DNA of 64,000 nucleotides from Escherichia phage F13: the sequence record OP745617; one strand, given 5' to 3'. Shown piece by piece: positions 4,862 through 37,555 of this stretch. The translations under genes and the position numbers were made by a program. Below the pieces are notes generated by a model. That model saw nothing but the letters and a program-made list of their open reading frames with translations. It did no database searches and was not told the origin of the DNA. How positions within the stretch are numbered: position 1 is the stretch's first letter; every line of letters begins with the position of its first letter.

Positions 4862-4890
4862 TTTACTTCTTAGTACACTAAGACTATAAT
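4862..4890 (+). promoter_or_regulatory. sigma70-like promoter TTTACT-N17-TATAAT (cassette copy 2, drives gene 4958-5248)
   Basis: Identical to copy 1 (offset 303 bp); hairpin at 4913-4933, AGGAG at 4947-4951. Confidence 0.55.
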
Positions 4891-4957
4891 GTTTTATATC
4901 GAGAGGGGATGAGGTAGCGAATAGGTCGCTACCCTCCCGACTAACTAGGAGAATATT

Positions 4958-5248
4958 ATGATCACTTTATCCGCTATCCGTGCCGCTCGCGTCGAAACTT
5001 CCGAAAACTCTAACGTATTTGGCGAAACCTTAGAGAGCGTTTATCTCTCTAACGTTGACGCGATTATCGAGTCTATTTATGAGCCGATCAACTTCCTCGA
5101 CCTTTACAAGTATCGCGATGAGGACATCGTGTCCTACCGCGTAACGATTAACGGCTTCGTTTATACGATTACCGAAATCGGCGGCGAATATCTCGCTGTA
5201 CCGCAACTCGGCGGCGAAGTAACTTACTTTAAAATCGTAAGCCTTTAA
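4958..5248 (+). CDS. small early protein, paralog family member C (96 aa)
   Basis: ATG with AGGAG RBS; clear similarity to the 3736-4020 product (IR-A-VE, VY-NVD-IE, NG-xxE-EIG). Confidence 0.6.
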   Translation: MITLSAIRAARVETSENSNVFGETLESVYLSNVDAIIESIYEPINFLDLYKYRDEDIVSYRVTINGFVYTITEIGGEYLAVPQLGGEVTYFKIVSL

Positions 5249-5259
5249 GGAGAAGAAAA

Positions 5260-5469
5260 ATGATTAATATGAATAACTCTCTTAACGCGCGCGCCCATCG
5301 CACCGCCGTCATCGATATGTTCCGTGAGCTTAAGGACTTATGCGATAATATGAACGCGATGTTATCCATCGGCGGCTGGGGATACGAAGAAGAAGTTAAA
5401 TATGCGGTTATGCGTCGCCGTCGCGATAACGTCCTTGGGCAAATTAAACGCGCCGGATTATTCCTTTAA
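5260..5469 (+). CDS. hypothetical small protein (69 aa, basic)
   Basis: AAGGAG RBS 8 nt upstream of ATG; followed by an intrinsic terminator. Confidence 0.55.
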   Translation: MINMNNSLNARAHRTAVIDMFRELKDLCDNMNAMLSIGGWGYEEEVKYAVMRRRRDNVLGQIKRAGLFL

Positions 5470-5495
5470 TTATAATCAACCACCGTTACTAATAG

Positions 5496-5517
5496 GCCGC
5501 GCTTAGTCGCGGCTTTT
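5496..5517 (+). terminator. Rho-independent terminator (GCCGCG-cttagt-CGCGGC followed by TTTTCTT)
   Basis: GC stem plus T-run directly after stop of gene 5260-5469. Confidence 0.6.
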
Positions 5518-22237: not shown

Positions 22238-22693
22238 ATGTCATTAGATTACGAAAAGTTCAGAATTAAATTTCCACAGTTTGCTGATCAGGTTAAATTC
22301 CCTGACACAACACTTCAAGTATTCTATGACATGGCATGTGAATTTATTGAATCACAAGACAGTCCTTGTCGTGTTTTAAATGGCAGTAAATTGGAGCTGG
22401 CATTGGAATATATGACGGCTCATCTTTTATGCATAGCCGCAGACCAACAAGTGTCTGTGTCTTCTGGTGACGGAGTTGAACAAGGCGGCTTCGTGACTGG
22501 CGCAACAATTGGTGACATCACAGTGAACAAAGTCGCGCCGCCTGCGAGTGATGGCTGGGAATACTGGCTATCAAGCACTCCATATGGCATGGCGCTGTGG
22601 GCGCTTCTTCAAGCACTGGCCGTTGGCGGCTTGTCATTCGGCGGTCTTCCAGAGCGTGAAGGATTCCGTAAAATTGGTGGGGTATTCTGGTGA
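22238..22693 (+). CDS. head-tail connector/adaptor-like protein
   Basis: AAGGTG RBS, ATG 22238; YEKFRIKFPQFADQ N-terminus resembles head-tail adaptor families (memory-based). Confidence 0.4.
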   Translation: MSLDYEKFRIKFPQFADQVKFPDTTLQVFYDMACEFIESQDSPCRVLNGSKLELALEYMTAHLLCIAADQQVSVSSGDGVEQGGFVTGATIGDITVNKVAPPASDGWEYWLSSTPYGMALWALLQALAVGGLSFGGLPEREGFRKIGGVFW

Positions 22694-23076
22694 GGATTCC
22701 TGGCGTAAACTTATATCGAGTTGCGACAAAGGTTATCGGTCGCCAACCGATTCAATATTACATGTACAAGGGGCGCACCCTTGATAAGATGCGCAACTAT
22801 GTCACTACATATGAAGAACCAATCACCTTACTTGCTTCGGTGCAGGCTGTACTTCGAAACCAATACGTTGAGCTTGGTTTAGAGCTTCAAAAGAACTATG
22901 TCAAAATCTGGGTGGACAAAGACATTGTTGACCTTGACCGCGACGCTTCCGGCGACTATTTTGTGTTTGGTGGCAAAACATACAAGATGGAAGATGAAAC
23001 GACATGGTTTGACCAAGATGGTTGGACGTCTTGCCTTGCCGTGGAAGTAAAACAAAGCTTTCCAGTGTCTACTTGA
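22690..23076 (+). CDS. hypothetical head-tail joining protein (GTG start)
   Basis: GTGA overlap with upstream stop; conserved gene order. Confidence 0.4.
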   Translation: MRIPGVNLYRVATKVIGRQPIQYYMYKGRTLDKMRNYVTTYEEPITLLASVQAVLRNQYVELGLELQKNYVKIWVDKDIVDLDRDASGDYFVFGGKTYKMEDETTWFDQDGWTSCLAVEVKQSFPVST

Positions 23077-23083
23077 GGTGTAT

Positions 23084-23659
23084 ATGACAGATGTCGACCT
23101 GATTGACATGCTGGCAACGCGAATTGAAGAAGGTCTGGCGGCGTATAGTCGTGCAGACCTTTCTGCTGTTCCGGTCCAGAAAAAATACCAACCGACTCAA
23201 CAGGGCATTCCGACTGGTGATCAGATTTGGTTTAACCTTTTATTCTCAGTCCCATTCGGTTGGTCAATGAGAAAGAATGAATTTGTCAATGATGAATCTC
23301 AATTCGTTAATGGCAAATTTAAAGATATTGAAGATCAGATATACGCAACACGTTTTCAAATTAGCGGCTTATTTCCAGAAGTTCCTGGCAATCCAGAAAA
23401 GCCTACGGCTAATGACGTTTTGACTTATTTAGCAAGATTCATAACCCACAAGGCTAATTTGAGGGATTGGTTTAAAAGGCATCAAGCTTCAGTATATAGA
23501 GTCGACATGAACAACAATGAAAAGTTCTATGACGACATGTCTCAGTTTGAATCGTTTCCTTCTTTTGATTTGGTAATCCTTCACAGAAACGCAATTTCAA
23601 TTGACACGCCTGCTGTTGCAAGAGCTGTTAATAACGATTTAGGCGATATTCCGGTGTGA
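23084..23659 (+). CDS. hypothetical tail-completion protein
   Basis: GAGG RBS, ATG 23084. Confidence 0.45.
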   Translation: MTDVDLIDMLATRIEEGLAAYSRADLSAVPVQKKYQPTQQGIPTGDQIWFNLLFSVPFGWSMRKNEFVNDESQFVNGKFKDIEDQIYATRFQISGLFPEVPGNPEKPTANDVLTYLARFITHKANLRDWFKRHQASVYRVDMNNNEKFYDDMSQFESFPSFDLVILHRNAISIDTPAVARAVNNDLGDIPV

Positions 23660-23660: not shown

Positions 23661-24146
23661 ATGACAAAATCAAAAATGATAGAAAAACAGATAAAGGCGC
23701 TTCAATCGATGAAGGGTCTTACTGTTGAAGCAGGATGGTTTGATTCTACCAGATACCCTTCAGAAACTGGTGGGGAAGGCATGTTGGTGTCAGAAGTCGC
23801 GCGACTGAATGAATTTGGTCACATAGCCGTTTTGAACTTTGGGCAAGGGCCAGTCAGGGTAGAAGTGCCACCCAGACCATTCATGAGATATGCCTATGAA
23901 TTATTCGTTAGTGAGCGCAGTGAAATAGAGAATAAAATTGCTAAAAAGATTTTTTCCGGTAAAATAGACGCTAGACAGGCATTAGGTCAGATTGGGCTTG
24001 CGATGGAAGCAAAGATTGTCGAATCAATTAAAAACGGACCTTGGCAAAGAAACGCCAGATATACCGTGCGTGTGAAAGGATTCGACAAACCTTTAATTCA
24101 CAGCAGCCTTATGTGGCAATCTGTCAACAGCCAAGTCATTAAATAA
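23661..24146 (+). CDS. hypothetical protein (161 aa)
   Basis: Begins 2 nt after the previous stop. Confidence 0.45.
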   Translation: MTKSKMIEKQIKALQSMKGLTVEAGWFDSTRYPSETGGEGMLVSEVARLNEFGHIAVLNFGQGPVRVEVPPRPFMRYAYELFVSERSEIENKIAKKIFSGKIDARQALGQIGLAMEAKIVESIKNGPWQRNARYTVRVKGFDKPLIHSSLMWQSVNSQVIK

Positions 24147-24158: not shown

Positions 24159-25697
24159 GTGATCAGTCAATCTCGTTATATTAAAATTGTATCAGGGGTC
24201 GGAGCAGGCGCGGCTGTTGCAGTTCGCAAACTGTCGCTTCGCATCATGACTTCCAATACAGTTCTGCCGCCAGGCATTGTAGCAGAATTTTCAACTGCTG
24301 ATGCCGTTGGATCATATTTCGGTTTTTCTTCCGAAGAATACAAGCGTGCAGCACTGTATTTCGGATTCATCAGCAAGCAAATCAACTCGCCTGATTCAAT
24401 CAGCTTTTCTCGCGTTGTATCCACGGCGATTCCTGCAATGGTTATCGGCGACACTGAGCCTAAAACGCTTGCTACTTTCCAGGCATTCACTGGCGCTATC
24501 TTAAGCATCACTTATGACGGCACAGACTACCTGACTGACGCCATCAACCTTTCAGCGGCAACAAGTCTTGCCAACGTAGCGGAACTTTTGGAAACGGCAA
24601 TCAACACCAAGTTTGCAGCAGAAGGTGGCACGTCGGTGCCTGCACTTGCTGATGCAGAAGTGTATTGGAATGCCAACACCCAGCAGTTCACTTTGGAAGC
24701 CGCTCCGTCGACCGCTGGTGCTGGAAACCTTTCGATTAACGTCACAGGTCAACCGACAGACCCATCTCAGGCGCTTGGTTGGACGACTACTGGCACCGTT
24801 ACGGTTGCTGGACAGGGTGTAGCAAGTCCGGTAGAAGCCATCGCGGCATCTGTGGAGATTTCCAACAACTTTGGCTCATTCCTTTTCGCTGGAGCAGACC
24901 GAACGCTGGAAGAAATCACAGCCGTTGCAGCTTGGACTCACTCGCAGAACAACATGTACATGTATCTGTTCTCGACTGCATTCGCCAACATCGGCTCATA
25001 CTATACCGCGTTGAAAGGTTACTCAGGCGTTGGTATGATGATCCGTGCAACTAACCTCGCGAATGATTACATCGACCAGGCGCCTGCTGAAATTCTTGCG
25101 GCGACAAACTATAACACTGTAAATGCAACTCAAAACTACATGTATTATCAGTTTGAAACGCGAAATGTAACCGTATCGACTGATTCACGCGCAGATACTG
25201 CTGATCAAAACCGTGCAAACTATATCGGTGCGACTCAGCAAGCTGGTCAAACTCTCGCGTTCTTCCAGCGTGGTGTTCTGATGGGCGGGTCTACCGCAGC
25301 AGTTGACATGAACACTTATGCCAACGAGATGTGGCTTAAATCTGCTATCACTTCTCAGCTGTTCAGCATGTTCTTGAATCTTGGTCGCGTGCCTGCAAAC
25401 GAAGAAGGCAAAGCGACTGTCCAAGCCATGATTCAAGTTGCTGTTGACAATGCGAAGGTTAACGGCACCATCTCTGTCGGTAAGGCGCTGACGGAAATTC
25501 AGAAACAGTACATCACGCAAACCTCCGGTGACAACACTGCTTGGCGGCAGGTTGAGACTATCGGTTATTGGTTGACTGTCGATTTTGACACTGAAACCAC
25601 TTCCGATAACCGCACCGAATACTATGCAACATACACGCTAATCTACTCTAAAGATGATGCTGTGCGTCGCGTTGAAGGTCGTGACGTTCTTATTTAA
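24159..25697 (+). CDS. tail sheath-like protein (candidate)
   Basis: 512 aa, AAGAGGA RBS with GTG start; directly precedes the tube-like gene; call is from order and size. Confidence 0.5.
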   Translation: MISQSRYIKIVSGVGAGAAVAVRKLSLRIMTSNTVLPPGIVAEFSTADAVGSYFGFSSEEYKRAALYFGFISKQINSPDSISFSRVVSTAIPAMVIGDTEPKTLATFQAFTGAILSITYDGTDYLTDAINLSAATSLANVAELLETAINTKFAAEGGTSVPALADAEVYWNANTQQFTLEAAPSTAGAGNLSINVTGQPTDPSQALGWTTTGTVTVAGQGVASPVEAIAASVEISNNFGSFLFAGADRTLEEITAVAAWTHSQNNMYMYLFSTAFANIGSYYTALKGYSGVGMMIRATNLANDYIDQAPAEILAATNYNTVNATQNYMYYQFETRNVTVSTDSRADTADQNRANYIGATQQAGQTLAFFQRGVLMGGSTAAVDMNTYANEMWLKSAITSQLFSMFLNLGRVPANEEGKATVQAMIQVAVDNAKVNGTISVGKALTEIQKQYITQTSGDNTAWRQVETIGYWLTVDFDTETTSDNRTEYYATYTLIYSKDDAVRRVEGRDVLI

Positions 25698-25704
25698 ATA
25701 ATTG

Positions 25705-25721
25705 CCGCCGTAAATGGCGGC
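25705..25721 (+). other. Short hairpin GCCGCC-taaat-GGCGGC between sheath-like and tube-like genes
   Basis: 6-bp GC stem just after the sheath stop. Confidence 0.3.
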
Positions 25722-25744
25722 CATCTCTCTGAGAGGAATCTGTA

Positions 25745-26212
25745 ATGATTAACGTTTCCGGTTTTGGCGCTTCGATTCGTTTGGTAGCATCAAACACTTT
25801 TCCGAATGGTGTGACTCTTTCTGATTTTGCAGATGATGCTGATCCGATTGACGCGCCGGACCTGCAAATCTCTGAGGCTGCAATGGGCCTTAACGGTGAC
25901 TTAGTAGTATGGAACCGTGCAAACCCGCTTGAAGTAGGTGTGAACATCATCCCTACTTCTGAAAGTGATGTCAACTTGGACGTTCTTGCAGCTGCAAACC
26001 GCGTAGGCAAGCGTAAGAACTCTGCAAAAGACGTGATCACACTTGTGCTGACTTATCCTTCTGGAATGGTTATCACGCTAAACAAAGGCACCTTGACAAC
26101 TGGTTCAGTAATTCCTGGCATCCAGTCTCAAGGTCGTGTGAAAACACGTCAATATCGCTTCAAGTTTGAGAACGTAGTCAAAACTGGCGTGAGCAACCAA
26201 GAGATTTTATAA
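25745..26212 (+). CDS. tail tube-like protein, paralog 1
   Basis: GAGAGGAA RBS; MINVSGFGASIRLVASNTFPNG… paralogous to the 27163-27660 product. Confidence 0.5.
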   Translation: MINVSGFGASIRLVASNTFPNGVTLSDFADDADPIDAPDLQISEAAMGLNGDLVVWNRANPLEVGVNIIPTSESDVNLDVLAAANRVGKRKNSAKDVITLVLTYPSGMVITLNKGTLTTGSVIPGIQSQGRVKTRQYRFKFENVVKTGVSNQEIL

Positions 26213-26541
26213 TGTATCAAATACCACTTGACAGCGTACCTAACCAGAATATCAGCTTTAACGTTGACGGTGCATATTGGCAGTTGCACATTTTTGCCGC
26301 TATCGAGCACATGTGCGCCGACGTATACCGCAACGGTGAACTTTTGATTCAAGGGGTGCGCTGTTTTGGTGGTATCCCAATGGTGCCTTATAAGTATCTC
26401 ATGATTGGGTACGGTAATTTCATTTTCGACAGCGTACCTGATTATGAAAGTTTTAACTCTGGCGGCTGTAATCTATATTACATGTCAGAATCTGAGTTGG
26501 CTGAATTCCAGGCAACTGCTGAAGCGGAGTTTGCAATTTGA
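26212..26541 (+). CDS. hypothetical protein (109 aa)
   Basis: ATGA coupling with upstream gene. Confidence 0.4.
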   Translation: MYQIPLDSVPNQNISFNVDGAYWQLHIFAAIEHMCADVYRNGELLIQGVRCFGGIPMVPYKYLMIGYGNFIFDSVPDYESFNSGGCNLYYMSESELAEFQATAEAEFAI

Positions 26542-26894
26542 CAACTCTAACAATTGAAGTTAACGAAAATAATGACCTTTTTCTGCCTGATGGAAGAAAC
26601 TTAAATATTCTTTCAGGAGAAAAAGCGATGGTGCAAGTAATCAAGGCCGCGCACCAGATGCGACTTGGTGAAGACTTGTACGATATAGAAAACGGTGTCG
26701 ATTATTTGGGGACCGTTTTCAAGTCGCCCGTTGACGAAGACGGTGCGCGAAAGTCGATTGCAGATGCTATTCTGAAGAAAGCAGACGTTGCCGGAATCGA
26801 CTCGTTGACTGTCACCATCCAAAACGGTATCCTTGGATTCACTGCAGAAGTGGTGACTATTTATGGCGAACGTATAAAGGTGAGTAATCAATAA
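26538..26894 (+). CDS. hypothetical protein (118 aa, non-ATG start)
   Basis: Overlaps neighbours by 4 nt. Confidence 0.4.
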   Translation: MTTLTIEVNENNDLFLPDGRNLNILSGEKAMVQVIKAAHQMRLGEDLYDIENGVDYLGTVFKSPVDEDGARKSIADAILKKADVAGIDSLTVTIQNGILGFTAEVVTIYGERIKVSNQ

Positions 26895-27160
26895 TGGCAC
26901 AAGTAATTCATTTTGCAAATGGCGTCATGAAATTTGGCGAAAAATTTGAAGACGCATCAGAGCTGTTTAATAAGAAGGTTGATCCTGTTGCAGAAATCAA
27001 AGAGCAGGTCGAAGAAAAATCCGTTGAACAAAAACTAGATTTTGATTCCATGAGCGTTTCAGAATTGAAGTCTTATGCTAAAGAAAATGGCATTGACATC
27101 AAGGGTCTTTCTTATAAGGATGAAATTCTTGCTGCAGTTAAATCTGCATCTGCGGAGTAA
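26894..27160 (+). CDS. hypothetical acidic protein (88 aa)
   Basis: Coupled ORF. Confidence 0.4.
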   Translation: MAQVIHFANGVMKFGEKFEDASELFNKKVDPVAEIKEQVEEKSVEQKLDFDSMSVSELKSYAKENGIDIKGLSYKDEILAAVKSASAE

Positions 27161-27162
27161 AC

Positions 27163-27660
27163 ATGGTCAATATTAGTGGATTTGGCACAAGCATTAGAAT
27201 TGTCGCTCTTCAATCTTTTCCTGTTGGGCTGAATATCAGTTCTTTGTCTGATGACCAGGATTCGCTAATCATTGAGGAAGTTGAATCAGTAGGTTATCAA
27301 CTTACTTACGACGGCGGCATTTGCATATACGACAAAGCCGCCGTCGTTCGCGTATCCATTGCGGTCATTCCAAACACTGAAGACGACATAAATCTTAAGC
27401 TTTTATTATCTGCCCGTAAAGGTGGATTCAAGTGGTTGCCAATTCAGGATGTGACATCGATGCTCATTACATATCCTGACGGTGGAAGGGTGGCATTCTC
27501 TAACGGAACGATAATCAGCGGTCCGCTTGGTGACTCCATAGAGCAATCAGGCCGTCGCAAGACAAACCGATACACATTTGTGTTTGCCAGCTACGGTGGC
27601 GCACAGAGCACGTCTCAAATTGCCAAGGGCGTGGTGCAGAGCATATTGGGGTCCATTTAA
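27163..27660 (+). CDS. tail tube-like protein, paralog 2
   Basis: MVNISGFGTSIRIVALQSFPVG… aligns along its length with the 25745-26212 product. Confidence 0.5.
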   Translation: MVNISGFGTSIRIVALQSFPVGLNISSLSDDQDSLIIEEVESVGYQLTYDGGICIYDKAAVVRVSIAVIPNTEDDINLKLLLSARKGGFKWLPIQDVTSMLITYPDGGRVAFSNGTIISGPLGDSIEQSGRRKTNRYTFVFASYGGAQSTSQIAKGVVQSILGSI

Positions 27661-28193
27661 TGGCTATCGATTTACTGTCATATAGTCTATCAAACAGAAG
27701 CTTCACGATAAAGAGCTTCAACCTTGGAGAAGTATCCACGCTTGGATGGGCCATAGTCAACGTCAAAATAAGACTCCAAGCAAAGATATTCAAAAACCAA
27801 AGGGAAGACGGCAGCTATATTGTCGATGGCAGAGTAAAGATGCCGCGAATACTCACTGTCACCGTGATAGCTCAGACGAAAAGCGCATCAGATGCAATAG
27901 CTAAGATGTTGCAAAACAGGTCGACTATATACACAATTAATTCCCGTGGTCTAATATTCGAACGTATGGTGCTGCAAAATAACAACTTCAGCCAGGACGC
28001 TGACAATATAACGTCTCAGCCCATACAATTGGTCTTCCATGAGATATTAACACAGCAGGATGTGTCTATTCAAACAGCGCAGGCAGGCGACTCAACAGTA
28101 ATAGAGCGCGGCATTGCATACATAAAAGAAACTTCTGCCAGCGTCACCGGCGTCGCTACAAAGGTGATGAATGGTATCAAGGGGATGTTCTGA
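27660..28193 (+). CDS. hypothetical tail protein (177 aa)
   Basis: Coupled ORF in the tail module. Confidence 0.4.
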   Translation: MAIDLLSYSLSNRSFTIKSFNLGEVSTLGWAIVNVKIRLQAKIFKNQREDGSYIVDGRVKMPRILTVTVIAQTKSASDAIAKMLQNRSTIYTINSRGLIFERMVLQNNNFSQDADNITSQPIQLVFHEILTQQDVSIQTAQAGDSTVIERGIAYIKETSASVTGVATKVMNGIKGMF

Positions 28194-28753
28194 TGGACTT
28201 CGTTTCGATTCTGCTTTCTGGTCAATCTTTGACCATAACGAATGAGTCAACAGGTCTTCCTGTCTGGACAAGGCTTTCACCTGTTTCTGCAGAAATAACA
28301 TCCCCAGCAGAAACAACTCAATTCCCTCTTGCTGGCACAGCCATGCAGGTTGTCGAAGTATCAAGCACGTCATCAGTAAGCAATTTACAGGCAGCAAAGG
28401 TTGTAATGCCAGCCCATATGGCGTTAAACGTAATTTGCAATGACCAGTCTACAATTGAAAATATCATAAATTCATTTGATGATGACGAAGTCACATTTTC
28501 AATAACTTCTCGAAGCATCATTGCCAGTAAAATGTCGATGTCCGACGTTGAAATAACCCAGTCAGAAGAAAACTTGAATGGAGTCTCAATAGTAATAACT
28601 TTCGAGCAAACGTCATTTAGCATTCAAGGAAGCTTCGACCCTAAACAATCTGCAGACGAATCATCAAATGGTGTTGCTATTAAAGAACCAGTCAGTTTGA
28701 CTACAACTGTGAGTTCGTTATATAATAAAATAAAATCAACAGTAGGAATATAA
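28193..28753 (+). CDS. hypothetical tail protein (186 aa)
   Basis: Coupled ORF. Confidence 0.4.
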   Translation: MDFVSILLSGQSLTITNESTGLPVWTRLSPVSAEITSPAETTQFPLAGTAMQVVEVSSTSSVSNLQAAKVVMPAHMALNVICNDQSTIENIINSFDDDEVTFSITSRSIIASKMSMSDVEITQSEENLNGVSIVITFEQTSFSIQGSFDPKQSADESSNGVAIKEPVSLTTTVSSLYNKIKSTVGI

Positions 28754-28754
28754 A

Positions 28755-29171
28755 ATGAAGATCACCAACAAACAAACTGGTCGTACAGTAGAAATTAAAA
28801 TCAGCAAAATGACTGCGATGGAAGGCTGGAATATTCAGCGTCGCTTTGTCGAATTTGCAATGTCGAAAGACCCTGCGTTTCGTTCAGAGTATACGATGGA
28901 AGTGTTGAGCTTCGCAAAAGTCGAGCTTGATGTGGGTCAAGAAATCCCATTAAGCACTGGTGCACTAATTGACAACCATCTTGGTGACTGGGAAAACCTT
29001 AAAGAAGTCTTCGAAGCAGTCCTCATGGAGAACGGTATAAACCCAGATACTCACGCCGAGCGTGAAGGCTACTGGGAACAAGCTGGCGGCGAAATGGCTG
29101 CAGCATTCATCGGCGAATCGATGCGATTAATCGCGCCATTCCTCAGCGGCGAGACTCCAAACAAGGGGTAA
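28755..29171 (+). CDS. tail assembly chaperone (candidate)
   Basis: 138-aa acidic protein immediately upstream of and in the same frame as the tape measure gene. Confidence 0.4.
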   Translation: MKITNKQTGRTVEIKISKMTAMEGWNIQRRFVEFAMSKDPAFRSEYTMEVLSFAKVELDVGQEIPLSTGALIDNHLGDWENLKEVFEAVLMENGINPDTHAEREGYWEQAGGEMAAAFIGESMRLIAPFLSGETPNKG

Positions 29172-29174
29172 ACT

Positions 29175-31355
29175 GTGTCTGACTCATTAGAAAAATTTGT
29201 GCTTCAATATACGGTGGACTTGAAAGAGTCCATCAATCGTCTTGAGCAATTGCAAGATAAAGTTGATCAGACAAACAAAAAGGCGAAATCCGCTGGAAAA
29301 GATTTCTCTGGAGCATTCAAAGATGTTTTTGGCGAGCTAAAGCCGCTCACTGGTGAGCTAGGGTCAATCGACGGAATACTTGCGCGGCTGACATATCGTT
29401 TTGCCGCGCTTGTTCCTGTGGTAGCAGGATTGGCTGTCGTTGTCAAATCCATCGTTGATGTTCGAAAAGAATACGAAGCGCAAAGAAAGCTTGGTTTTGA
29501 AGCCGGACTCTCTCCAATGGGTGTCGAACAACTACAACGACAGTTGAATGAAAGTTCAGGTGGCATCCTTGGCGCACAGGGGTCGCGCGATTTAATCAGC
29601 AAAGCTTCTAATTTGGCATTCAATGCATACACCAACCCTGATGTGATGAACAAGGACAACTTGTTGCTGAACAAGATGGGGACAAGTCCTTTCAATAGTA
29701 ACGGCGGCATCAAAGACACGAATCAGCTGCTTGATGAAATTGGAACAAAGCTGAGAAGTGTTAATGAGCAAACCGCTCGTGCCATTGGTGCTCTGGCAGG
29801 ATTCACGGCTGATGAAGTCCGCGCCCTTCGTGAGCGCAACCAGTCTGTGAAAGAAAGCACGCGCATAAGTGACGAAGAAACCGCGAAGCTGCAAAGACAG
29901 CAAGCTGCTCTTGAGACTATACGAAATAGTATGGGGCAAATTCAAGAAGATTGGCGGCGTATTGAACTGGTCATCGGTGAAAACGTTATGCCTGCATTCT
30001 CGACGCTTGTCAGCAAAACCGCCGATACAGTCGAAGGATTCCAGATGATGTTCCAAAGAATGTCCGATGGGTGGTCTGAATTCGTCGACAATTTCATCGC
30101 TGACTTGAAACATCCGTTCGACAAGCAGGCCGCTGTCAACGAGCGTCACGAGCGTGCCGTTGATAGATGGATCACGCAGATGGCAGACGGCGATGTGAAA
30201 CGCCAGAGGAACCAGGAGCAAAACGCTGCTGAACAACGCTCTGCACAGGCTCTTTTTACTCGCGATATCAACCTGTTTTCAAGTGCCGTTTCAACCTTTG
30301 CTGGCGTGATTGATGAGCGTCAAGCTTGGGCGGCATGGGCAGGTGAAATCGGGCGCAGCGCAGGGCAATCCGCGATGCCTGGAACACCAGCATTGAATAC
30401 TGGCGCGACCGTAGGGAATAATCTTGGGTCAGGGAATCCGACAGCATACGACTCAATATATGAGGAAGCTTCAAAACGCTATGGTATACCTGTTGCGATG
30501 ATGAAGGCCGTAACAGAAGTCGAATCTGGATTCAACCCCAATGCCGTAAGCGGAGCAGGTGCGACCGGACTGATGCAAATCATGCCTTCCAACTTCAAGG
30601 GTCTTGGTATCACAGACGGCAACGACCCTAGACAAAACATTATGGGCGGCGCTCAACTGTTGAAAGAGTATTTAAACGCTGCCAACGGCGATTGGAATCT
30701 TGCGCTGACGATGTATCACGGTGGCTACGACCGCAGCGGCTGGGGCAAGAATACACGCGCTTATCCTGGAAAGGTCATGGCAGCTCTCGACCGACAATCC
30801 AATGGTGAGTATGCCACGGCAGCGCCGCAAGGTGCACCAGTTACTCCAGTACTTAGCGGTAGCGGAGCGGAAGCACCAAAGGGCCGTTATGCACCAGTAC
30901 AAGGTCAATCGCGCCAAACGGTGCAATACAGGCAATTGCAAGAAGCCATTGCAGGATACCTGAACGTACCAGTTGAGCAGTTGATGCAGGGACAAGTCAA
31001 CAAAGGTGATATTGACTTTGCTCAAACTTACCTTAAGCTTGGAACGCAAAGGGATTATATTAAAAACATGCAACTGGCTTCAACTCCAGGTGTAAGACCG
31101 AACATTCAAGCCGAAGCGATGAAAAACGCTCGTCTTGCTGCATTCCAACTTGAAGCATTCCAGAAATACGGCGGCGACCTTTCCGCGAATAGTCGACCTG
31201 GTGGGCGTGATATTACTATGGGTCAGAAAAACGTTGTCATCAACGTCAACGGCGCTCAAGACCCACGCAGCACGGCATTCGAAACGAAACGAGTGCTTGA
31301 ACAAGATGATATCAACGACATAAACAACCTTACTGCTACACCTTTGAAGTGGTGA
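29175..31355 (+). CDS. tail tape measure protein with lytic transglycosylase (SLT) domain
   Basis: 726 aa, helical N-terminus; VTEVESGFNPNAVSGAGATGLMQIMPSNF is the SLT signature; GTG start with AAGGGG RBS. Confidence 0.75.
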   Translation: MSDSLEKFVLQYTVDLKESINRLEQLQDKVDQTNKKAKSAGKDFSGAFKDVFGELKPLTGELGSIDGILARLTYRFAALVPVVAGLAVVVKSIVDVRKEYEAQRKLGFEAGLSPMGVEQLQRQLNESSGGILGAQGSRDLISKASNLAFNAYTNPDVMNKDNLLLNKMGTSPFNSNGGIKDTNQLLDEIGTKLRSVNEQTARAIGALAGFTADEVRALRERNQSVKESTRISDEETAKLQRQQAALETIRNSMGQIQEDWRRIELVIGENVMPAFSTLVSKTADTVEGFQMMFQRMSDGWSEFVDNFIADLKHPFDKQAAVNERHERAVDRWITQMADGDVKRQRNQEQNAAEQRSAQALFTRDINLFSSAVSTFAGVIDERQAWAAWAGEIGRSAGQSAMPGTPALNTGATVGNNLGSGNPTAYDSIYEEASKRYGIPVAMMKAVTEVESGFNPNAVSGAGATGLMQIMPSNFKGLGITDGNDPRQNIMGGAQLLKEYLNAANGDWNLALTMYHGGYDRSGWGKNTRAYPGKVMAALDRQSNGEYATAAPQGAPVTPVLSGSGAEAPKGRYAPVQGQSRQTVQYRQLQEAIAGYLNVPVEQLMQGQVNKGDIDFAQTYLKLGTQRDYIKNMQLASTPGVRPNIQAEAMKNARLAAFQLEAFQKYGGDLSANSRPGGRDITMGQKNVVINVNGAQDPRSTAFETKRVLEQDDINDINNLTATPLKW

Positions 31356-31359
31356 TAAT

Positions 31360-32232
31360 TTGAAAAAGAGAATCCTTAAAGTCACCTTATCTATGCCGGA
31401 TGGCACAAGCCAAGTGCTTGATGAAGGATTGATGCTTAGATGCCGAATCAAAAAGGCAGCACTTTCCGTGCAAAATAAGGCCACAATCGAAGTCGCAGGA
31501 TTGACAGGGTACTTGAGAGAGTACCTGCTTTCCAACTTCACCGCATTCAACAAACGTCTGCGTGATCAAGGTCAATTGGCGGCGAATTATGTCAACGTAA
31601 CAATTGAAGCTGGATATAGAGAAGGCAACGTTGTTAGTAGCAACTTAGTCTACAAGGGGCAAGTCACAACGGTCGAGATAACAGCGCCGCCGCCGAACAT
31701 CGTCATACGCATCACTTGCTACACCAACCAGATAAACAGGACTAAGTTTATCACTCAAGCTGCACCGTCAAACCCAACATTCAAAGAGTTTGTGGAGTGG
31801 TCGGCAAAGCAAATGGATATTGATACTGTTATATGCGATACTTCGATTAACAATCAGCGCCTTGTTAACCCAGGCCGCACAACATATGTTGCAGCCGCCT
31901 TGTTGCTTGAGATTCAGAACTATCAAAGGAACTCTATTGCGGCATATATCGATGATGATACGCTCATCGTCAAGGATAAAGACAAAATTCTGAATCCAGA
32001 ACAGATAACGGTGATTGAGGAATTTGTCGGAATACCGATGTGGAACGAGTGGGGCGCTGACTTCACTTGCATGTATAACGCGGATTTGAAGCTTGCCCAA
32101 GGTGTGAAATTCAAATCAGTCTTAAACCCAAGCTTGAACGACACCACATTCGTCATCATGCAACTTGAATATGATTTAGCAAGTCGTGATGACATATTTA
32201 CGGTGACGGGCGGCGTTGCACCATCGGCCTAA
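31360..32232 (+). CDS. tail/baseplate hub protein (candidate)
   Basis: Position directly after the tape measure. Confidence 0.4.
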   Translation: MKKRILKVTLSMPDGTSQVLDEGLMLRCRIKKAALSVQNKATIEVAGLTGYLREYLLSNFTAFNKRLRDQGQLAANYVNVTIEAGYREGNVVSSNLVYKGQVTTVEITAPPPNIVIRITCYTNQINRTKFITQAAPSNPTFKEFVEWSAKQMDIDTVICDTSINNQRLVNPGRTTYVAAALLLEIQNYQRNSIAAYIDDDTLIVKDKDKILNPEQITVIEEFVGIPMWNEWGADFTCMYNADLKLAQGVKFKSVLNPSLNDTTFVIMQLEYDLASRDDIFTVTGGVAPSA

Positions 32233-32813: not shown

Positions 32814-33542
32814 ATGATGGCAGAAAAGTTAACCCAACTTACAAGCCCCAACCAAACTGACAAATCAAGTATGTTTGCCGCGCTGCAGGGAATGCTGGAC
32901 CGTGGCAAGTATACCACTGACGGCATGATTCCTGCACAAGTAATATCTTATGACCGCAAACAGAATTTAGCAGTCATAAAGCCTGTTATTCATTTCGTAA
33001 GTCTTGATGATAAACCAGTGGAGCGTCAACCCCTGGTGTCAATTCCTGTGTTGGCAATCGGCGGCGGCGGCTTTGTAATCAACTTTCCTCTGAAAGAGGG
33101 TGATTTGGGCTGGATATTCGCTGGCGACCGCGAGTTGTCGACATTCCTTGAAGAATTGAAGCCGACCGCGCCTACCAATGGTCGCGCGAAAACTTTCGCT
33201 GATGGACTGTTCATACCGGATGTATTTCGAAAATACACCATAAGCGGAGAGGATGCAGGCTCAATGGTAATCCAGTCACTCAGCGGCGCTGTCCGCATTG
33301 CATTAAGTGATGACTCGATAAACATAACTGCATCCGCTGGAGTAAATGTGAAAACACCAATAACCACTATCGACCAACAATTGATAGTTAATGGAAAGGC
33401 AACGTTCAATGGTGGTATAGAAGGGAAAGAAGGAACGACGGCAACGCTTCCGACTGGCACAACAATCGGCGGCATAAATGTATCCACTCACGGTCACATA
33501 GGTAACGGACCTGGAAACAGAACTGGGGATATGATAGAATGA
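32814..33542 (+). CDS. baseplate spike/gpV-like protein (candidate)
   Basis: AAGGAG RBS, ATG 32814/32817; Gly-rich C-terminus ending GGINVSTHGHIGNGPGN. Confidence 0.45.
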   Translation: MMAEKLTQLTSPNQTDKSSMFAALQGMLDRGKYTTDGMIPAQVISYDRKQNLAVIKPVIHFVSLDDKPVERQPLVSIPVLAIGGGGFVINFPLKEGDLGWIFAGDRELSTFLEELKPTAPTNGRAKTFADGLFIPDVFRKYTISGEDAGSMVIQSLSGAVRIALSDDSINITASAGVNVKTPITTIDQQLIVNGKATFNGGIEGKEGTTATLPTGTTIGGINVSTHGHIGNGPGNRTGDMIE

Positions 33543-34810
33543 GTGCACAATATTCTTACATAGTAAGCACTGGTGTAATAACCATCGACACAGCCGATTT
33601 GCTGGCTGACGTTCAAAGTGAATGGATTGAGTCATTAGGGGTCGGGCTTGACGTTGATGCATCGACACCGCAAGGCACCCTAATCGCGACAGAGACTTTG
33701 GCAAGAACTTCAGTCATGAAGAACAACGCCGAGCTGGGAAGTCTCATCAACCCTAATTATTCATATGGCGTATACCTTGATGCCATCGCGGCATTGCTTG
33801 GTATTGAGCGAACGAAAAACATCAGCACGATGTTGAAAGGAATTACCGCAGAAGGAACGCCGCTGTTGGAAATTCCTGCTGGAAGTTTGCTGACGGATTC
33901 AAACGGCACATACTGGTATGTTCTTGAAGACGTTCAAATCACTTCGACTGGCAAGACAAGCAACATGACTCTTGCATCAAAAGATTATGGCTCATTTACT
34001 GTTGCCCCTGATGAAGAGTTTACAGTGGTGCAAGGATATGACGTCATCGGATGGTCAAGAACGTATTCAACATCAGCAACGACGACCGTACCAGGTACGC
34101 AATACATGGGCGACGGAGCGTTAAAGGCCGCTCGCGTAAAGCGCCTTTACCAGCAGGGAATTGCATCGCTTGGTGCTATTCGCGCTCGCGCCATGTCGGT
34201 CGACGGCGTGGAATCGGTGATGGTCGTGGAGAACGACACGGGATTGCCTGGAACGGTGCGCGGCATCACCTTTTCAACGCCTAACGGTGTCTGGGTGTGC
34301 GCAAGCGGAACGTTCGATAAGCAAGTTTTTGCTGAGACTATTTTCAAGGCAAAGATGGGCGGCCAGCCGTGGGACTTTGGTGCTACCAACCAGGGTGATC
34401 CAGTCAACTCGCCTGATGGAATAGAAGTTGTCGACGAAGAATCGCAACTGTCTTATTTCGTAAAGTTCAACACTGCTGTCATATATGACTTGTATGTCGA
34501 TATTACTGTTGTAAGAGGCACCGCAACCGCCGATGCCGAATCTATTATTGCCGCTGTGTTGAATTACGGTAATGGAAATTTTAACGGCGAGCAAGGATAT
34601 GCAGTGGGCCAATCTCAATCTTCTTTTGAGATTGCTTCAGCAGTGTCTTGCGAGTATCCAGGTCTGTACATTAAAGATTGCAAAATTGCAGCAGTAAAAA
34701 GCGGACAGGCAGCGCCAAATTATCCATCCGATTACGGCAGCGAGTGGATTGCCAATCCTTGGGATAAGGCTAATACTATGCGCGGCTTCATCAACGTTAA
34801 ATTTGTGTGA
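33539..34810 (+). CDS. baseplate J-like protein (candidate)
   Basis: 423 aa, ATGA coupling, position after the spike-like gene. Confidence 0.45.
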   Translation: MSAQYSYIVSTGVITIDTADLLADVQSEWIESLGVGLDVDASTPQGTLIATETLARTSVMKNNAELGSLINPNYSYGVYLDAIAALLGIERTKNISTMLKGITAEGTPLLEIPAGSLLTDSNGTYWYVLEDVQITSTGKTSNMTLASKDYGSFTVAPDEEFTVVQGYDVIGWSRTYSTSATTTVPGTQYMGDGALKAARVKRLYQQGIASLGAIRARAMSVDGVESVMVVENDTGLPGTVRGITFSTPNGVWVCASGTFDKQVFAETIFKAKMGGQPWDFGATNQGDPVNSPDGIEVVDEESQLSYFVKFNTAVIYDLYVDITVVRGTATADAESIIAAVLNYGNGNFNGEQGYAVGQSQSSFEIASAVSCEYPGLYIKDCKIAAVKSGQAAPNYPSDYGSEWIANPWDKANTMRGFINVKFV

Positions 34811-34816: not shown

Positions 34817-37555
34817 ATGCAAAAGTTTGACACAAACCTGTTGCAAAACCTTAAGTGGATGCAGAACAATGCGCCAAACATTACATCTTTGGTGCAAAAG
34901 AAAAGTGACTGGTATGAAAGATACCAAGATCAGTTTTGGACTGACTGGTACAATAACATTTTTAACATTGACACTTGTGATGCAATGGGCATTTATATTT
35001 GGTGCGACATTCTTTGCATACCAAGAGACTTTGTGGACTTAAGCAATTATGAGCACAACTGGGCGTTTGGACCGACGCGCGACAACTTTGAAGGTGCGGA
35101 CAACATCGGCGGCAACTTCTTTGGTGCTGGCGGGAAGGTTGTAAAGAATATCGAAGAAGCGCGCATACTTCTTAAGCTTCGTTATCTGACGCTTACAAGT
35201 GATGGCCGCATCGAAAGTATCAATCGCATGCTTAAGTGGATTTTCAACCGTGGAGAGGCTTGGGATTACTCTTCATCACGCTACGCATATGTGACCGACA
35301 ATACTCAAGGCGCAGTGTCTTCGTCTGAATCAACCAATGGCTCATTCCTTCTGTACGACTGGCAAGGGTCAACTGAGATTCAGCACGATTATAAGCAGAT
35401 ACTTTTAAGCCATGGCAACAACGCCGGACTGACCATCAGCGGAGTATCAGGCACCGTGTCACGGATGGCGCATCCAGATTGGTACTCATGGGGGAATGGC
35501 TCCGGCACAGGTCTTGTCGGCGGCGACACCAGACAGTATGGCGGCCCTGATTACTATGGACAGTTGTGTGGTGATTACCCAGGCGAGGCCATAGAGAATT
35601 TTGCCAACGCAGTAAGGGTAGTCAAGACTGCTTCAAGCGGTGAGCCTGTGTATTCTTTGGCAGATAATCCAAGCGCCCAATCCATTGCGCTTCCTTCGCA
35701 GGCTGGCGTTAACGTTTGTTATAGCTTCTACATAAAGGTGCTTTCTGAAAATGTCGCTTCTGTTTCGGTTACAGAGAATAGTGATGCATCTAGTAATGGA
35801 AAGTTGTTTGACCCAGTCACTGGGCAGTTCAACTTGGACCCGTATTTGAGCTATTTCATCACAGGCAAATTCGATGGAGTAAGAAGGGAATCAAGCCGTG
35901 GTGGCATCAAAGCAATCGGCGGCGATTGGTATCGAATCTGGATTGTAGAGCAGACGGCAACCGCTGCGTCTGGAGTAAGTACCAGCTTTTCAATAGAGTT
36001 GAAGGCGACTGCCGCTGGATCAACTCAAACTCGTGAATTGCCTGAAGGGTCTGATGCACTTCTTTTTGGATACTCGATTTGCGTCTGCGACCCTGTTCAG
36101 AATCCAAATGGACCTGAGCCTTATTTTTATGGAACGCAAAACCCTCCTTCTGACGGAACAGCAATACTGTCTGTAACGGCGGGAACGCTCAACAACATCT
36201 CCTGTGCAAACGGACCGCTGACGACAAGAAACGGTGTGGTTGGCGAGTCATTCATGCAACCTGGCTCATCACTTGCATACTCTGGCTCAATCGGCGGCTA
36301 CCCGTACCCAGGGAACGCCACATTGATTGCAGAGACTGACGGCATCAGACGCTCATGGAACGTTAGCAGGCTTGATGGAGTACCGCCGCCGCCGACCGCT
36401 GACTATTACATGGAATACGTCATCGGACCTTATTTCGCCAACAACCTGTCAGACAACTTTAAGACGCTAGTTGGCGACAGGGATGAAGGATTCTTGCCAG
36501 CAAATGCCGGAATACGCTGGCAGCGTTACCAAGAAGTCGCAGACTTATCTGATATTGATTTGACTGTCAGCAACATAACAGACACGCGAGTAGGATTTGA
36601 AACGGAAGGTGTTGCTTGGATTAACACTGACGGTATCATCAGAGTTGGCGGCATTAACGAGTGGCCGCTGAACAACTTCAACGGTGTGATACGCCAGCTT
36701 GAATCTTTGAAAGGTGTAAACCAGGTCATCGACGGCGCGCTTGTCAACGACTATTCAATCTCAAAAGCATCAAGAGATGACTTTGGTCGTGAAATCCCAC
36801 GTGCCGCAATCACTAACTACTGGAGATACACACAGCCCAATGACGGCACATCTTTTGGCAATATCATTGAGGATGGCGCAAACACGGTCACAGCGACGCC
36901 AATCAGCGGTGTACCCAACCAGTTCCCATCATTCAAGCTTTCCGCTACAATAGGGACTGTGCCAGCGTCCGGTTATGCACGCGCTGTACTTGCTACTAAA
37001 TACACTGGCACCCTGACTGGTCCTTTATCATTCATTGCGGTAGTCAAAAACAACACGGTTAACGGTCAAAAACTTTTTGTAACTGTACCGGATGGGATGG
37101 GTGGCTATATCCCTAAATTCTACAACATAGGCGCAGGTGATTTGCAACGTATCGAAATTGACCTTGCCGCTGAGATTGTTGAAGGCGCTACCTGGGATGG
37201 ATCAACAGGCGGCATCAGCATCGGTTTGATATCAGGGAAAGACTTGCCGACCGAAGTTGGTACGACTCTTGAACTTGATATTTTAAGCTTGATGCTTGTG
37301 TCTGGTAATACGATGAATGCGCTTGCAATTTCAACAAGCGAAGATTTCGCAAAGAAGACTGCGACTTCTATATACATCAAAAACCCAGGATCACTTGCCA
37401 CTGGAGTTCAATTGATTGCTTCTAATGGTGATGTTGTAGCAACAGTAAACTTTCCGAGAAGTGCTGCTGGTGGTTATGTTTCAAGCATGAACATAACTGA
37501 CTTAACTGGTGATTGGGCATCAACCCTTTTATCAAAAATTAAATACATCGTGTAG
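34817..37555 (+). CDS. large baseplate-associated/tail fibre protein (912 aa)
   Basis: Size, Gly/Ser/Thr-rich composition and position upstream of the distal tail fibre. Confidence 0.5.
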   Translation: MQKFDTNLLQNLKWMQNNAPNITSLVQKKSDWYERYQDQFWTDWYNNIFNIDTCDAMGIYIWCDILCIPRDFVDLSNYEHNWAFGPTRDNFEGADNIGGNFFGAGGKVVKNIEEARILLKLRYLTLTSDGRIESINRMLKWIFNRGEAWDYSSSRYAYVTDNTQGAVSSSESTNGSFLLYDWQGSTEIQHDYKQILLSHGNNAGLTISGVSGTVSRMAHPDWYSWGNGSGTGLVGGDTRQYGGPDYYGQLCGDYPGEAIENFANAVRVVKTASSGEPVYSLADNPSAQSIALPSQAGVNVCYSFYIKVLSENVASVSVTENSDASSNGKLFDPVTGQFNLDPYLSYFITGKFDGVRRESSRGGIKAIGGDWYRIWIVEQTATAASGVSTSFSIELKATAAGSTQTRELPEGSDALLFGYSICVCDPVQNPNGPEPYFYGTQNPPSDGTAILSVTAGTLNNISCANGPLTTRNGVVGESFMQPGSSLAYSGSIGGYPYPGNATLIAETDGIRRSWNVSRLDGVPPPPTADYYMEYVIGPYFANNLSDNFKTLVGDRDEGFLPANAGIRWQRYQEVADLSDIDLTVSNITDTRVGFETEGVAWINTDGIIRVGGINEWPLNNFNGVIRQLESLKGVNQVIDGALVNDYSISKASRDDFGREIPRAAITNYWRYTQPNDGTSFGNIIEDGANTVTATPISGVPNQFPSFKLSATIGTVPASGYARAVLATKYTGTLTGPLSFIAVVKNNTVNGQKLFVTVPDGMGGYIPKFYNIGAGDLQRIEIDLAAEIVEGATWDGSTGGISIGLISGKDLPTEVGTTLELDILSLMLVSGNTMNALAISTSEDFAKKTATSIYIKNPGSLATGVQLIASNGDVVATVNFPRSAAGGYVSSMNITDLTGDWASTLLSKIKYIV

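Follow-up and report, generated by a model that had tools for sequence, protein, structure and literature searches.

The 64,000-nucleotide stretch of Escherichia phage F13 analysed here (sequence record OP745617), hereafter the window, contains two paralogous genes of the tail module. With a probability of roughly 93%, the first (ORF1) encodes the tail tube protein and the second (ORF2) a diverged duplicate of it that makes up a single-ring baseplate tube at the start of the tube. ORF1 lies at 25745-26212 and ORF2 at 27163-27660, both on the + strand, with products of 155 and 165 amino acids, respectively. In the region searched, the window is 100% identical to Escherichia phage vB_EcoM_SP13 (genus Wifcevirus), and the two ORFs correspond, with the same boundaries, to the GenBank CDSs SP13_036 and SP13_040 (OP352608.1).

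An old duplication in the tail module

ORF1 and ORF2 are true paralogues, as an earlier note made from the letters of the window had proposed. BLASTP aligns them without gaps, with 47 of 143 residues identical (33%), 61% positives and an E-value of 2e-32. Their Smith-Waterman score is 251, compared to 31 ± 5 (maximum 52) for 1000 shuffled sequences, which corresponds to z = 44. Both proteins match the E217_Gp32 family (Pfam: PF22764) over its full length, where a full-length match above the Pfam gathering score of 27 bits was taken as the cut-off for membership: ORF1 scores 203.8 bits (1.2e-60, profile positions 1-143 of 144) and ORF2 180.4 bits (1.9e-53, positions 2-143 of 144). ORF2 matches no other Pfam family, and PHROG 2420 is common to both. 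The N-terminal motif reads MINVSGFGASIRLVA in ORF1 and MVNISGFGTSIRIVA in ORF2, so that this part of the shared motif described in the earlier note is correct, whereas its 'LTYP' is inexact for the second protein: LTYPSG in ORF1 is ITYPDG in ORF2.

No DNA-level repeat was found between the two genes, the sole direct repeat being a 14-nt chance pair, and over the 143 aligned codons their nucleotide identity is 44%. The duplication is therefore old, in agreement with the ancient event retained in the tail module that had been suggested. It is older than the split between Wifcevirus, Pbunavirus and Bcepfunavirus. In an identity matrix of Wifcevirus, Pbunavirus SN and Bcepfunavirus BcepF1, orthologues share 46-54% identity and cross-paralogue pairs 28-40%. 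ORF2 orthologues keep about 52% identity and an unchanged position in all three genera, and ORF2 itself is 100% conserved in several Wifcevirus phages. Two copies are found in almost all related phage records (735 places in 379 records).

A neighbour-joining tree of 176 family members separates a clade of proteins of about 165 amino acids, with ORF2 and Pa193 gp37 (n=41, median length 165 amino acids), from a clade of about 148 amino acids with ORF1 and Pa193 gp33; the tree is bootstrap-free and has short internal branches, and orthology is judged instead by tabulated reciprocal scores and identities. The sequences of both clades were drawn from an exhaustive profile search. A homologue search with ORF2, bounded by its word index, gave at least 30 matches, nearly all of which are baseplate-tube orthologues.

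Candidate tail tube and baseplate tube

The best PDB match of ORF1 is 9b42_M, the Pa193 'gp33 Tail tube' (1.4e-48), followed by 8fuv_T with 4.4e-42. ORF1 shares 54% identity over 150 amino acids with Pa193 gp33, compared to 33-40% with the baseplate-tube clade. Its bit score is 167 for the Pa193 tube and 92 for the baseplate tube of that phage. By these measures ORF1 is the orthologue of the tail tubes E217 gp32 and Pa193 gp33, nearer to the solved Pbunavirus tube than to its own paralogue, and its 54% identity to 9b42_M points to a tube fold.

ORF2 shows the opposite preference. Its PDB matches are 9b45_M, 'gp37 Baseplate tube' (1.1e-52), and 8env_I (2.2e-49), and its identity to Pa193 gp37 is 52% over 164 amino acids, compared to 28-33% to tube proteins, its own paralogue included. 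It scores 181 and 170 bits against the baseplate tubes gp37 and gp36, and 80 and 63 bits against the tubes. On sequence, every tube protein is thus more distant from ORF2 than gp36/gp37 are, and ORF2 is the orthologue of the E217 gp36 ('tail tube-B') and Pa193 gp37 baseplate tubes.

An AlphaFold2 (AF2) model of ORF2, built from a 31-sequence alignment, reached a pLDDT of 79.8; a single-sequence run with a pLDDT of 32 was set aside. The model contains strands and a helix at residues 73-86, and a further helix is predicted at 150-164. Foldseek places 9b45_M first (TM 0.82/0.89, rmsd 2.4 Å), then 8env_I, then the tube chains 9b42_M and 8fuv_A; these top four, with TM values of 0.77-0.89, all come from E217 or Pa193. 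We took a beta-sandwich with one long helix and an extended beta-hairpin to define the tail-tube fold, and this architecture is the one predicted for ORF2. For ORF2 the model and Foldseek, and for ORF1 the identity to a solved tube, thus indicate that the two proteins have a common fold.

Proteins of the baseplate-tube group are extended at the C-terminus by about 15-20 residues, which are absent from the tube proteins. The consensus of this extension is GAQSxxQ...QxxLGLL, with nearly invariant G146 and Q148, and the GAQ motif is present in 27 of 49 baseplate-like compared to one of 121 tube-like sequences. In ORF2 the predicted helix at residues ~150-164 is amphipathic and conserved in the baseplate-tube clade. 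In the two solved baseplate-tube structures, 151-152 of 167 residues were built, and the last ~16 of Pa193 gp37 were not modelled (PMC11456595), so this conserved helix is without a structural template. It is conceivable, though rather unlikely, that the helix is a functional element missed by the cryo-EM work and that ORF2 is an active assembly initiator. If so, the helix could tether the tape-measure protein or a chaperone, or trigger polymerisation of the first tube ring, and ORF2 would be no passive spacer ring.

Gene order of the tail module

The gene order is colinear with gp28-gp41 of E217: collar, gateway, a gp30-like ORF (assigned by position only, having no Pfam match), sheath, tube, gp33, gp34, an unrelated gene, gp36, gp37, gp38, gp39, the tape-measure gene with SLT domain, and the hub. 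All features described below are on the + strand. At 23078-23659 lies a homologue of E217 gp29 (Pfam: PF22756, E217_gp29, 3.2e-38), a terminator-like neck protein on the proximal tube end in E217 (PMC10329688). A DUF3383-type tail sheath gene, orthologous to E217 gp31 and Pa193 gp32, is located at 24159-25697 (Pfam: PF11863, 6.6e-119; PDB 8fvg_A and 9b42_S, E ~1e-166) directly upstream of ORF1, which starts 47 nt past the sheath stop. Compared for a possible cause of unequal expression, ORF1 and ORF2 both have acceptable Shine-Dalgarno motifs (GGAG/GAGG).

Exactly three small genes separate ORF1 from ORF2, as the earlier note had counted. At 26212-26541 a protein of 109 amino acids is encoded that corresponds to the 'helical bundle' baseplate adaptor E217 gp33 / Pa193 gp34 of the Pam3 gp18 'plug' family (Pfam: PF22479, 2.5e-16; 9b45_A, 1.1e-26; 8env_G, 2.4e-26). 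It is followed at 26538-26894 by a 118-amino-acid protein matching the sheath initiator E217 gp34 / Pa193 gp35 (9b45_G 'Sheath initiator', 6.1e-23; 8env_H, 1.8e-21; PHROG 120). The third gene (26894-27160) encodes 88 amino acids with a SAP-like motif at residues 49-82 (Pfam SAP, 7e-6). This gene occupies the position of Pbunavirus gp35, and homology of its product to gp35 was rejected (BLASTP against SN gp35, E 0.13).

ORF2 thus follows the adaptor genes and lies directly upstream of both ripcord genes, as it does in SN and BcepF1. Ripcord-1 (E217 gp37 / Pa193 gp38) is encoded at 27660-28193, with matches to 9b45_S (1.1e-20), 8eon_A (2.9e-20), PF22760 and PF21821 and a tube-related Dit-like fold. 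Ripcord-2 (E217 gp38 / Pa193 gp39) follows at 28193-28753 (9b45_V, 1.3e-27; 8eon_D, 1.6e-27; PF22760, 1.8e-71) and is a distant paralogue of ripcord-1 (BLASTP E 2e-4). Between ORF2 and ripcord-1, BLASTP detected no relationship at the sequence level (E 3.4); for E217 a tube-ripcord relationship has been reported at the fold level only (PMC10329688).

Further downstream, an orthologue of Pbunavirus gp39 is located at 28755-29171 (52% identity to SN gp39, E 4e-49; PHROG 4627), and its place just upstream of the tape-measure gene suggests that it may be a tape-measure chaperone. The tape-measure-like tail protein with an SLT lytic transglycosylase domain, equivalent to E217 gp40, is encoded at 29175-31355 (Pfam: PF01464, 2.8e-24; PHROG 2013, 4.6e-139, and tape-measure PHROGs), and the baseplate hub E217 gp41 at 31360-32232 (Pfam: PF22759, E217_GP41, 3.4e-118).

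Presence in particles and codon usage

The counterparts of ORF1 and ORF2 in phage vB_Eco4M-7 are 100% identical proteins. In CsCl-purified vB_Eco4M-7, the ORF1-identical vB_Eco4M-7_49 was detected with six peptides, 52% coverage and a mass spectrometry (MS) score of 283, and the ORF2-identical vB_Eco4M-7_53 with three peptides, 25% coverage and a score of 4.5; these scores do not measure copy number, and some non-structural proteins, such as a helicase, were in the sample as well. The orthologue of the 88-amino-acid protein, vB_Eco4M-7_52 (86 of 88 residues identical), had a score of 2929. For ECML-117 the tube is listed and the ORF2 counterpart is absent from the list. The earlier note had named, as the outcome that would speak against its reading, a virion with only one of the two proteins and the other unrelated in fold; contrary to this outcome, proteins identical to both are present in the purified vB_Eco4M-7 sample, and a tube fold is indicated for each.

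Measured against the major capsid gene, the codon-usage index is 0.55 (0.48-0.62) for the tube and 0.53 for the sheath, compared to 0.37 (0.31-0.43) for the baseplate tube and 0.32-0.40 for the ripcords and the hub. The codon usage of ORF1 is therefore sheath-like and that of ORF2 resembles the low-copy baseplate genes, a signature of high against low expression. Together, the weak MS signal of ORF2 and its low-copy type of codon usage are consistent with six copies per virion, but they are not decisive.

Proposed arrangement and alternatives

The E217 tube consists of 34 gp32 hexamers, and the similar gp36 (RMSD 3.6 Å) forms one hexameric ring concentric with gp32, which serves as the attachment surface for three gp37/gp38 'ripcord' heterodimers that make up the ring underneath (PMC10329688). 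This gives a ratio of tube-B to tube of 6:204. Pa193 has the same tube and baseplate-tube arrangement (PMC11456595). By homology, ORF1 would form many hexameric rings, stacked within the sheath as the conduit for the DNA, and ORF2, in six copies, would add a single ring to the baseplate cap, on the same axis as the tube. The distal face of this ring would rest on a pseudo-hexamer of three ripcord-1/ripcord-2 pairs, followed by the trimeric hub and the spike, and its proximal face would offer a tube-like surface for the polymerisation of ORF1 rings. ORF2 would thus act as a structural adaptor at the tube start, within a stack that steps the symmetry from 6-fold to 3-fold, and the intervening genes would contribute two baseplate adaptors (the helical bundle and the sheath initiator) and one small protein. 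Stoichiometry, baseplate position and assembly order are all transferred from the homologues in this proposal; since the solved structures come from Pbunavirus only, ring number and position in Wifcevirus rest on 52-54% identity. Given these identities and the published structures of E217 and Pa193, the tube plus tube-initiator pair, one of the options raised in the earlier note, is essentially right (PMC10329688, PMC11456595).

The same note had also considered a heteromeric tube, in which ORF1 and ORF2 would co-polymerise along the whole length in alternating rings or mixed hexamers. The tube fold of both proteins and their joint presence in particles would fit such a tube, and in some other contractile systems two or more tube paralogues do build the central tube, as with Afp1, Afp5 and Afp7 (PMC12961389). 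However, the 34 tube rings of E217 and Pa193 are all made of the ORF1 orthologue (gp32/gp33), and gp36/gp37 contributes only one ring in the baseplate cap (PMC10329688, PMC11456595); moreover, for proteins of similar size, MS scores of 283 and 4.5 and the low-copy codon usage of ORF2 argue against equal partners, and we regard this alternative as highly improbable. The idea that ORF2 caps the tube on the side of the head, as a lambda gpU-like terminator would, fares no better. Terminators do touch the last tube ring, but the gene at 23078-23659 already encodes the gp29 homologue, the ORF2 orthologues were modelled in baseplate maps (8env, 8eon, 9b45) and in none of the neck maps, and ORF2 itself immediately precedes the ripcord genes, amid those of the baseplate cap; this part of the earlier suggestion has to be given up as very unlikely.

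It is just as improbable that ORF2 has no distinct role and represents a redundant, alternative or decaying copy of the tube gene. Paralogues can be redundant, and both the weak MS signal and the ECML-117 list would agree with such a copy. On the other hand, a decaying gene would hardly be kept at the same position with ~52% identity in three genera, in two copies in nearly every related record and at 100% conservation among several Wifcevirus phages, and it would not be expected to have a conserved C-terminal extension of its own (G146, Q148; GAQ). The single-ring baseplate tube therefore remains our preferred reading of ORF2.

Comparison with known systems

The closest likeness is to E217 (PDB: 8fuv, 8env, 8eon; Li et al. 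2023, PMC10329688), which shares the PF22764 pair, the collar-to-hub order and the company of two ripcord paralogues, a sheath initiator and a helical-bundle adaptor. Pa193 gp33 and gp37 (PDB: 9b42, 9b45; PMC11456595) are the best PDB match of each ORF. Unlike both phages, the window belongs to an E. coli phage of the genus Wifcevirus, with identities of only ~50% and an unrelated 88-amino-acid SAP-motif protein at the gp35 position.

Outside the phages, the Serratia anti-feeding prophage (Afp1/Afp5/Afp7) and the Photorhabdus PVC (Pvc1/Pvc5), which are extracellular contractile injection systems and tailocin-like particles, combine a main tube with tube-fold paralogues at the baseplate-proximal end (PMC12961389). 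The ORF2 model finds fold-level matches to two different chains each in 6rao and 9qgl. Identities to these chains are only 8-12% and TM values ~0.45-0.5, so the Afp and Pvc duplications are probably independent of the one described here.

In phage T4, whose baseplate is far more complex, gp19 forms the tube, and gp48 and gp54 are baseplate proteins of tube fold whose rings serve tube polymerisation. To our knowledge, there is no detectable sequence similarity to these T4 proteins, which are not recognisable as paralogues by sequence.

Bordetella phage vB_BaM-IFTN1, with a Pam3-like simple layout, shares the DUF3383 sheath, PF22764 tube, Dit-like protein, Pam3_gp18-family plug and gp41-type hub. 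In relatives of this type a single tube gene was detected, along with a single Dit-like gene, and the order is sheath, tube, a 141-amino-acid ORF with no Pfam match, annotated tape measure, Dit-like, plug and hub. In the lineage of the window, by comparison, the tube and Dit-like genes are duplicated, and the plug and sheath-initiator genes have moved between the tube paralogues.

Consequences for annotation and tail evolution

The paralogy of tube and baseplate tube and its structural meaning have already been published for E217 (2023) and Pa193 (2024), and the BASEL paper used the E217 structure to annotate Wifcevirus structural genes (PMC11990801). With the Wifcevirus-E217 homology thus already used in print, the finding is already known. 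In the BcepF1 record (EF153632.1), both genes are noted as resembling one BcepB1A protein, gp16. The GenBank and RefSeq labels of these genes are either 'hypothetical protein' or 'tail fiber protein'; the latter is wrong and was taken over from the names of the Pfam and PHROG families.

The observation itself holds, but it is an ordinary one and brings little new biology. Its practical value lies in annotation, where the genes can now be given the names tail tube, baseplate tube, ripcord-1 and ripcord-2, sheath initiator and helical-bundle adaptor. The evolutionary point is a modest one: compared to simpler one-copy relatives, this lineage has duplicated its tube and Dit-like genes.

Two paralogous tube genes with different identities

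An earlier note had described two paralogous tail tube-like genes separated by three small genes, and this observation is confirmed. Both plus strand ORFs are present, ORF1 at 25745-26212 (155 aa) and ORF2 at 27163-27660 (165 aa), with genes for 109, 118 and 88 aa between them. The two proteins align without gaps over 143 residues with 33% identity and 61% positives (BLASTP, E 2e-32), and in a Smith-Waterman comparison they score 251, with 31 +/- 5 obtained from 1000 shuffles (z = 44). Each also matches the whole length of Pfam PF22764 (ORF1 1.2e-60, ORF2 1.9e-53), and they have PHROG 2420 in common. The shared motifs occur as quoted in that note, except that the second reads ITYPDG in ORF2 and not LTYP. 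Since only 44% of nucleotides are identical in the aligned codons and no DNA repeat was found between the two genes, the duplication is old, as had been proposed.

The best PDB-sequence matches of ORF1 are the tail tube proteins of two Pseudomonas phages, Pa193 gp33 ('Tail tube', 9b42_M, 1.4e-48) and E217 gp32 (8fuv_T, 4.4e-42), whereas baseplate-tube chains match it at only ~1e-25. ORF2 matches best Pa193 gp37 ('Baseplate tube', 9b45_M, 1.1e-52) and E217 gp36 (8env_I, 2.2e-49), and tube chains at only 1e-21 to 1e-16. In BLASTP, identity to the Pa193 counterpart is 54% for ORF1 (tube) and 52% for ORF2 (baseplate tube). Between the window, which represents Wifcevirus, the Pbunavirus SN and the Bcepfunavirus BcepF1, orthologues share 46-54% identity and cross-paralogue pairs 28-40%. 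Orthologues are thus closer than paralogues across three genera, and therefore the duplication is older than the divergence of these genera.

The AlphaFold2 model of ORF2, built on an alignment of 31 sequences (pLDDT 79.8), has its closest structural matches in 9b45_M (TM 0.82/0.89, rmsd 2.4 A) and 8env_I. The tube chains 9b42_M and 8fuv_A come next, and more distant matches are tube proteins of many phages, Hcp, AFP and PVC. The model has a C-terminal helix at about residues 150-165 (window 27610-27657), which is conserved in the baseplate-tube clade (GAQ...Q...LGLL) and missing from tube proteins. It lies outside the built part of 9b45_M and 8env_I, in which 151-152 of 167 residues are modelled.

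Expected roles and copy number

The E217 tube consists of 34 stacked gp32 hexamers, and the gp36 ring is the surface to which three gp37/gp38 (ripcord-1/ripcord-2) heterodimers attach; this heterohexamer makes the step from 6-fold to 3-fold symmetry onto the trimeric hub gp41 and the tip gp43, and after contraction the tube tip retains gp36, gp37/gp38 and gp41 (PMC10329688). Pa193 has the same arrangement with gp37 as 'baseplate tube' (PMC11456595). By transfer from these phages, ORF1 would build the tube, and ORF2 would build a single ring that connects tube and baseplate cap and presents the first tube-like surface for polymerisation. We infer the number, position and assembly order of the ORF2 ring in this phage from homology.

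Phage vB_Eco4M-7 carries proteins 100% identical to ORF1 (_49) and ORF2 (_53). Mass spectrometry (MS) of its CsCl-purified virions detected the tube with 6 peptides (52% coverage, score 283) and the baseplate tube with 3 peptides (25% coverage, score 4.5). The protein listing of ECML-117 includes the 16.5-kDa tube protein and lacks the 17.6-kDa protein. On a codon-usage index that takes the major capsid gene as reference, ORF1 scores 0.55 (bootstrap 0.48-0.62) and groups with the sheath (0.53), and ORF2 scores 0.37 (0.31-0.43) and groups with the ripcords and the hub (0.32-0.40). Within 24159-32232, sheath, tube, helical bundle, SAP-motif protein and gp39-like gene form a high group (0.50-0.56), and sheath initiator, baseplate tube, ripcords, tape measure and hub a low group (0.32-0.41), a split that roughly tracks expected copy number. 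MS and codon usage agree with a tube protein of high copy number and a baseplate-ring protein of low copy number, and neither measures stoichiometry.

The earlier note had offered a tube plus initiator or terminator, or a heteromeric tube, an interpretation that holds in part. The orthology to E217 and Pa193 upholds a tube with a tube ring on the baseplate side. A heteromeric tube of ORF1 and ORF2 is contradicted by the orthologous structures, by the MS results and by the codon asymmetry. That ORF2 acts as terminator is not supported, as the gp29 homologue is a separate gene and ORF2 orthologues are placed in baseplate maps. Against ORF2 as a redundant or decaying copy speak the conservation of its position and sequence across genera, the C-terminal extension of the baseplate-tube clade and the finding that nearly all records of related phages hold two copies (735 places in 379 records).

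Gene order of the tail module

The entire tail module of the window is colinear with E217 gp28-gp41. Pfam searches identified the collar gp28 (22690-23076) and the gateway or terminator-like gp29 (23078-23659, +); the gp30-like gene (23661-24146) has no Pfam match and is assigned by position only. The sheath (24159-25697, +) was identified by Pfam and PDB sequence match, and the tube (ORF1, +), the helical-bundle adaptor gp33 (26212-26541, +), the sheath initiator gp34 (26538-26894, +), the baseplate tube (ORF2, +), ripcord-1 (27660-28193, +) and ripcord-2 (28193-28753, +) by PDB sequence match. These are followed by a gp39 orthologue (28755-29171, +; BLASTP against SN gp39), the tape measure with an SLT domain (29175-31355, +; Pfam, PHROG) and the hub gp41 (31360-32232, +; Pfam). 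Genes with PF18352 (32790-33542), Baseplate_J (33539-34810) and DUF2612 (34817-37555, +) matches lie downstream and would, from their position, be the spike and wedge genes. Pseudomonas phage SN and Burkholderia phage BcepF1 have the same interleaved order. Since adjacent genes mostly overlap by 1-4 nt or are separated by only a few nucleotides, a translationally coupled operon is suggested.

The ripcord genes directly downstream of ORF2 are a second, far more diverged paralogous pair (BLASTP E 2e-4), with PF22760 and the Dit-like family in both.

The 88-aa protein (26894-27160, +) carries a SAP/Rho_N-like motif between residues 49 and 82 (Pfam). It occupies the Pbunavirus gp35 position, and BLASTP found no homology to gp35 (E 0.13). 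Its vB_Eco4M-7 orthologue (86/88 residues identical) is among the highest scoring proteins in the CsCl-purified virions (10 peptides, 65% coverage, score 2929), and the codon index of the window gene, 0.56, is typical of high expression. This small protein seems to be abundant and virion-associated.

The 34817-37555 ORF (912 aa) starts with an ATG 7 nt past the preceding gene and matches DUF2612 from residue 10 onward. The OP352608.1 record instead has a 42-aa ORF, SP13_049 (window 34914-35042), followed by an 840-aa CDS, SP13_050 (35033-37555). The match begins upstream of this deposited start, which is probably mis-annotated.

Known systems and annotation

The tube/baseplate-tube arrangement is already known, with its structural interpretation published in 2023-2024. 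The E217/Pa193 pair is the closest system, and ORF1 and ORF2 show each of its features that sequence can test. Among looser parallels, T4 has further proteins with a tube fold, gp48 and gp54, on the baseplate side. PVC, and AFP with its central tube of Afp1, Afp5 and Afp7 (PMC12961389), carry such proteins at the same end.

In megablast, 24159-29171 is 100% identical to the Wifcevirus vB_EcoM_SP13 (OP352608.1; window coordinate = record coordinate + 2068) and matches 27 further records at 85-99%, all from phages of Escherichia or Shigella, with named Wifcevirus members among them. GenBank labels ORF1 and ORF2 'hypothetical protein', and RefSeq relatives 'tail fiber protein'. Tube, baseplate-tube and ripcord proteins are misnamed in the family databases, as 'Tail fiber protein gp32' in PF22764 and as 'tail fiber protein' in phrog_2420 and phrog_2580, and the label has spread into RefSeq relatives (NC_048195, NC_048194, NC_011756) four times per genome. 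In the BcepF1 record (EF153632.1), each of the two tube paralogues is already annotated as 'similar to BcepB1A gp16'. Homology between Wifcevirus and Pbunavirus has explicitly been used in annotation before (PMC11990801).

Distribution and origin of the duplication

Searching 1.84 billion cluster representatives with a profile yielded 434 family clusters at E <= 0.001. Among the 150 best matches, the 140 of 135-200 aa were classified; 120 of them, with a median of 148 aa, are nearer to tube references, and 20, with a median of 165 aa, to baseplate-tube references. The tube family thus extends beyond the phages with the duplicated arrangement.

Bordetella phage vB_BaM-IFTN1 (4433-11330) shares the sheath, tube, plug and hub families with the window, but has a single detected tube gene and a single Dit-like gene where the window has two of each. 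Its order is sheath, tube, a 141-aa ORF without Pfam match, annotated tape measure, Dit-like gene, plug and hub, and its tube shares 44-48% identity with the tube clade versus 28-33% with baseplate tubes. BcepF1 (549-5511) has the duplicated, interleaved order of the window. From the one comparison with vB_BaM-IFTN1, we infer that the Wifcevirus/Pbunavirus/Bcepfunavirus lineage duplicated the tube gene to give the baseplate tube and the Dit-like gene to give ripcord-1 and ripcord-2, and that the plug and sheath-initiator genes moved between the tube paralogues. This suggests that the duplication of two baseplate/tube genes, together with gene rearrangement, is specific to this lineage.
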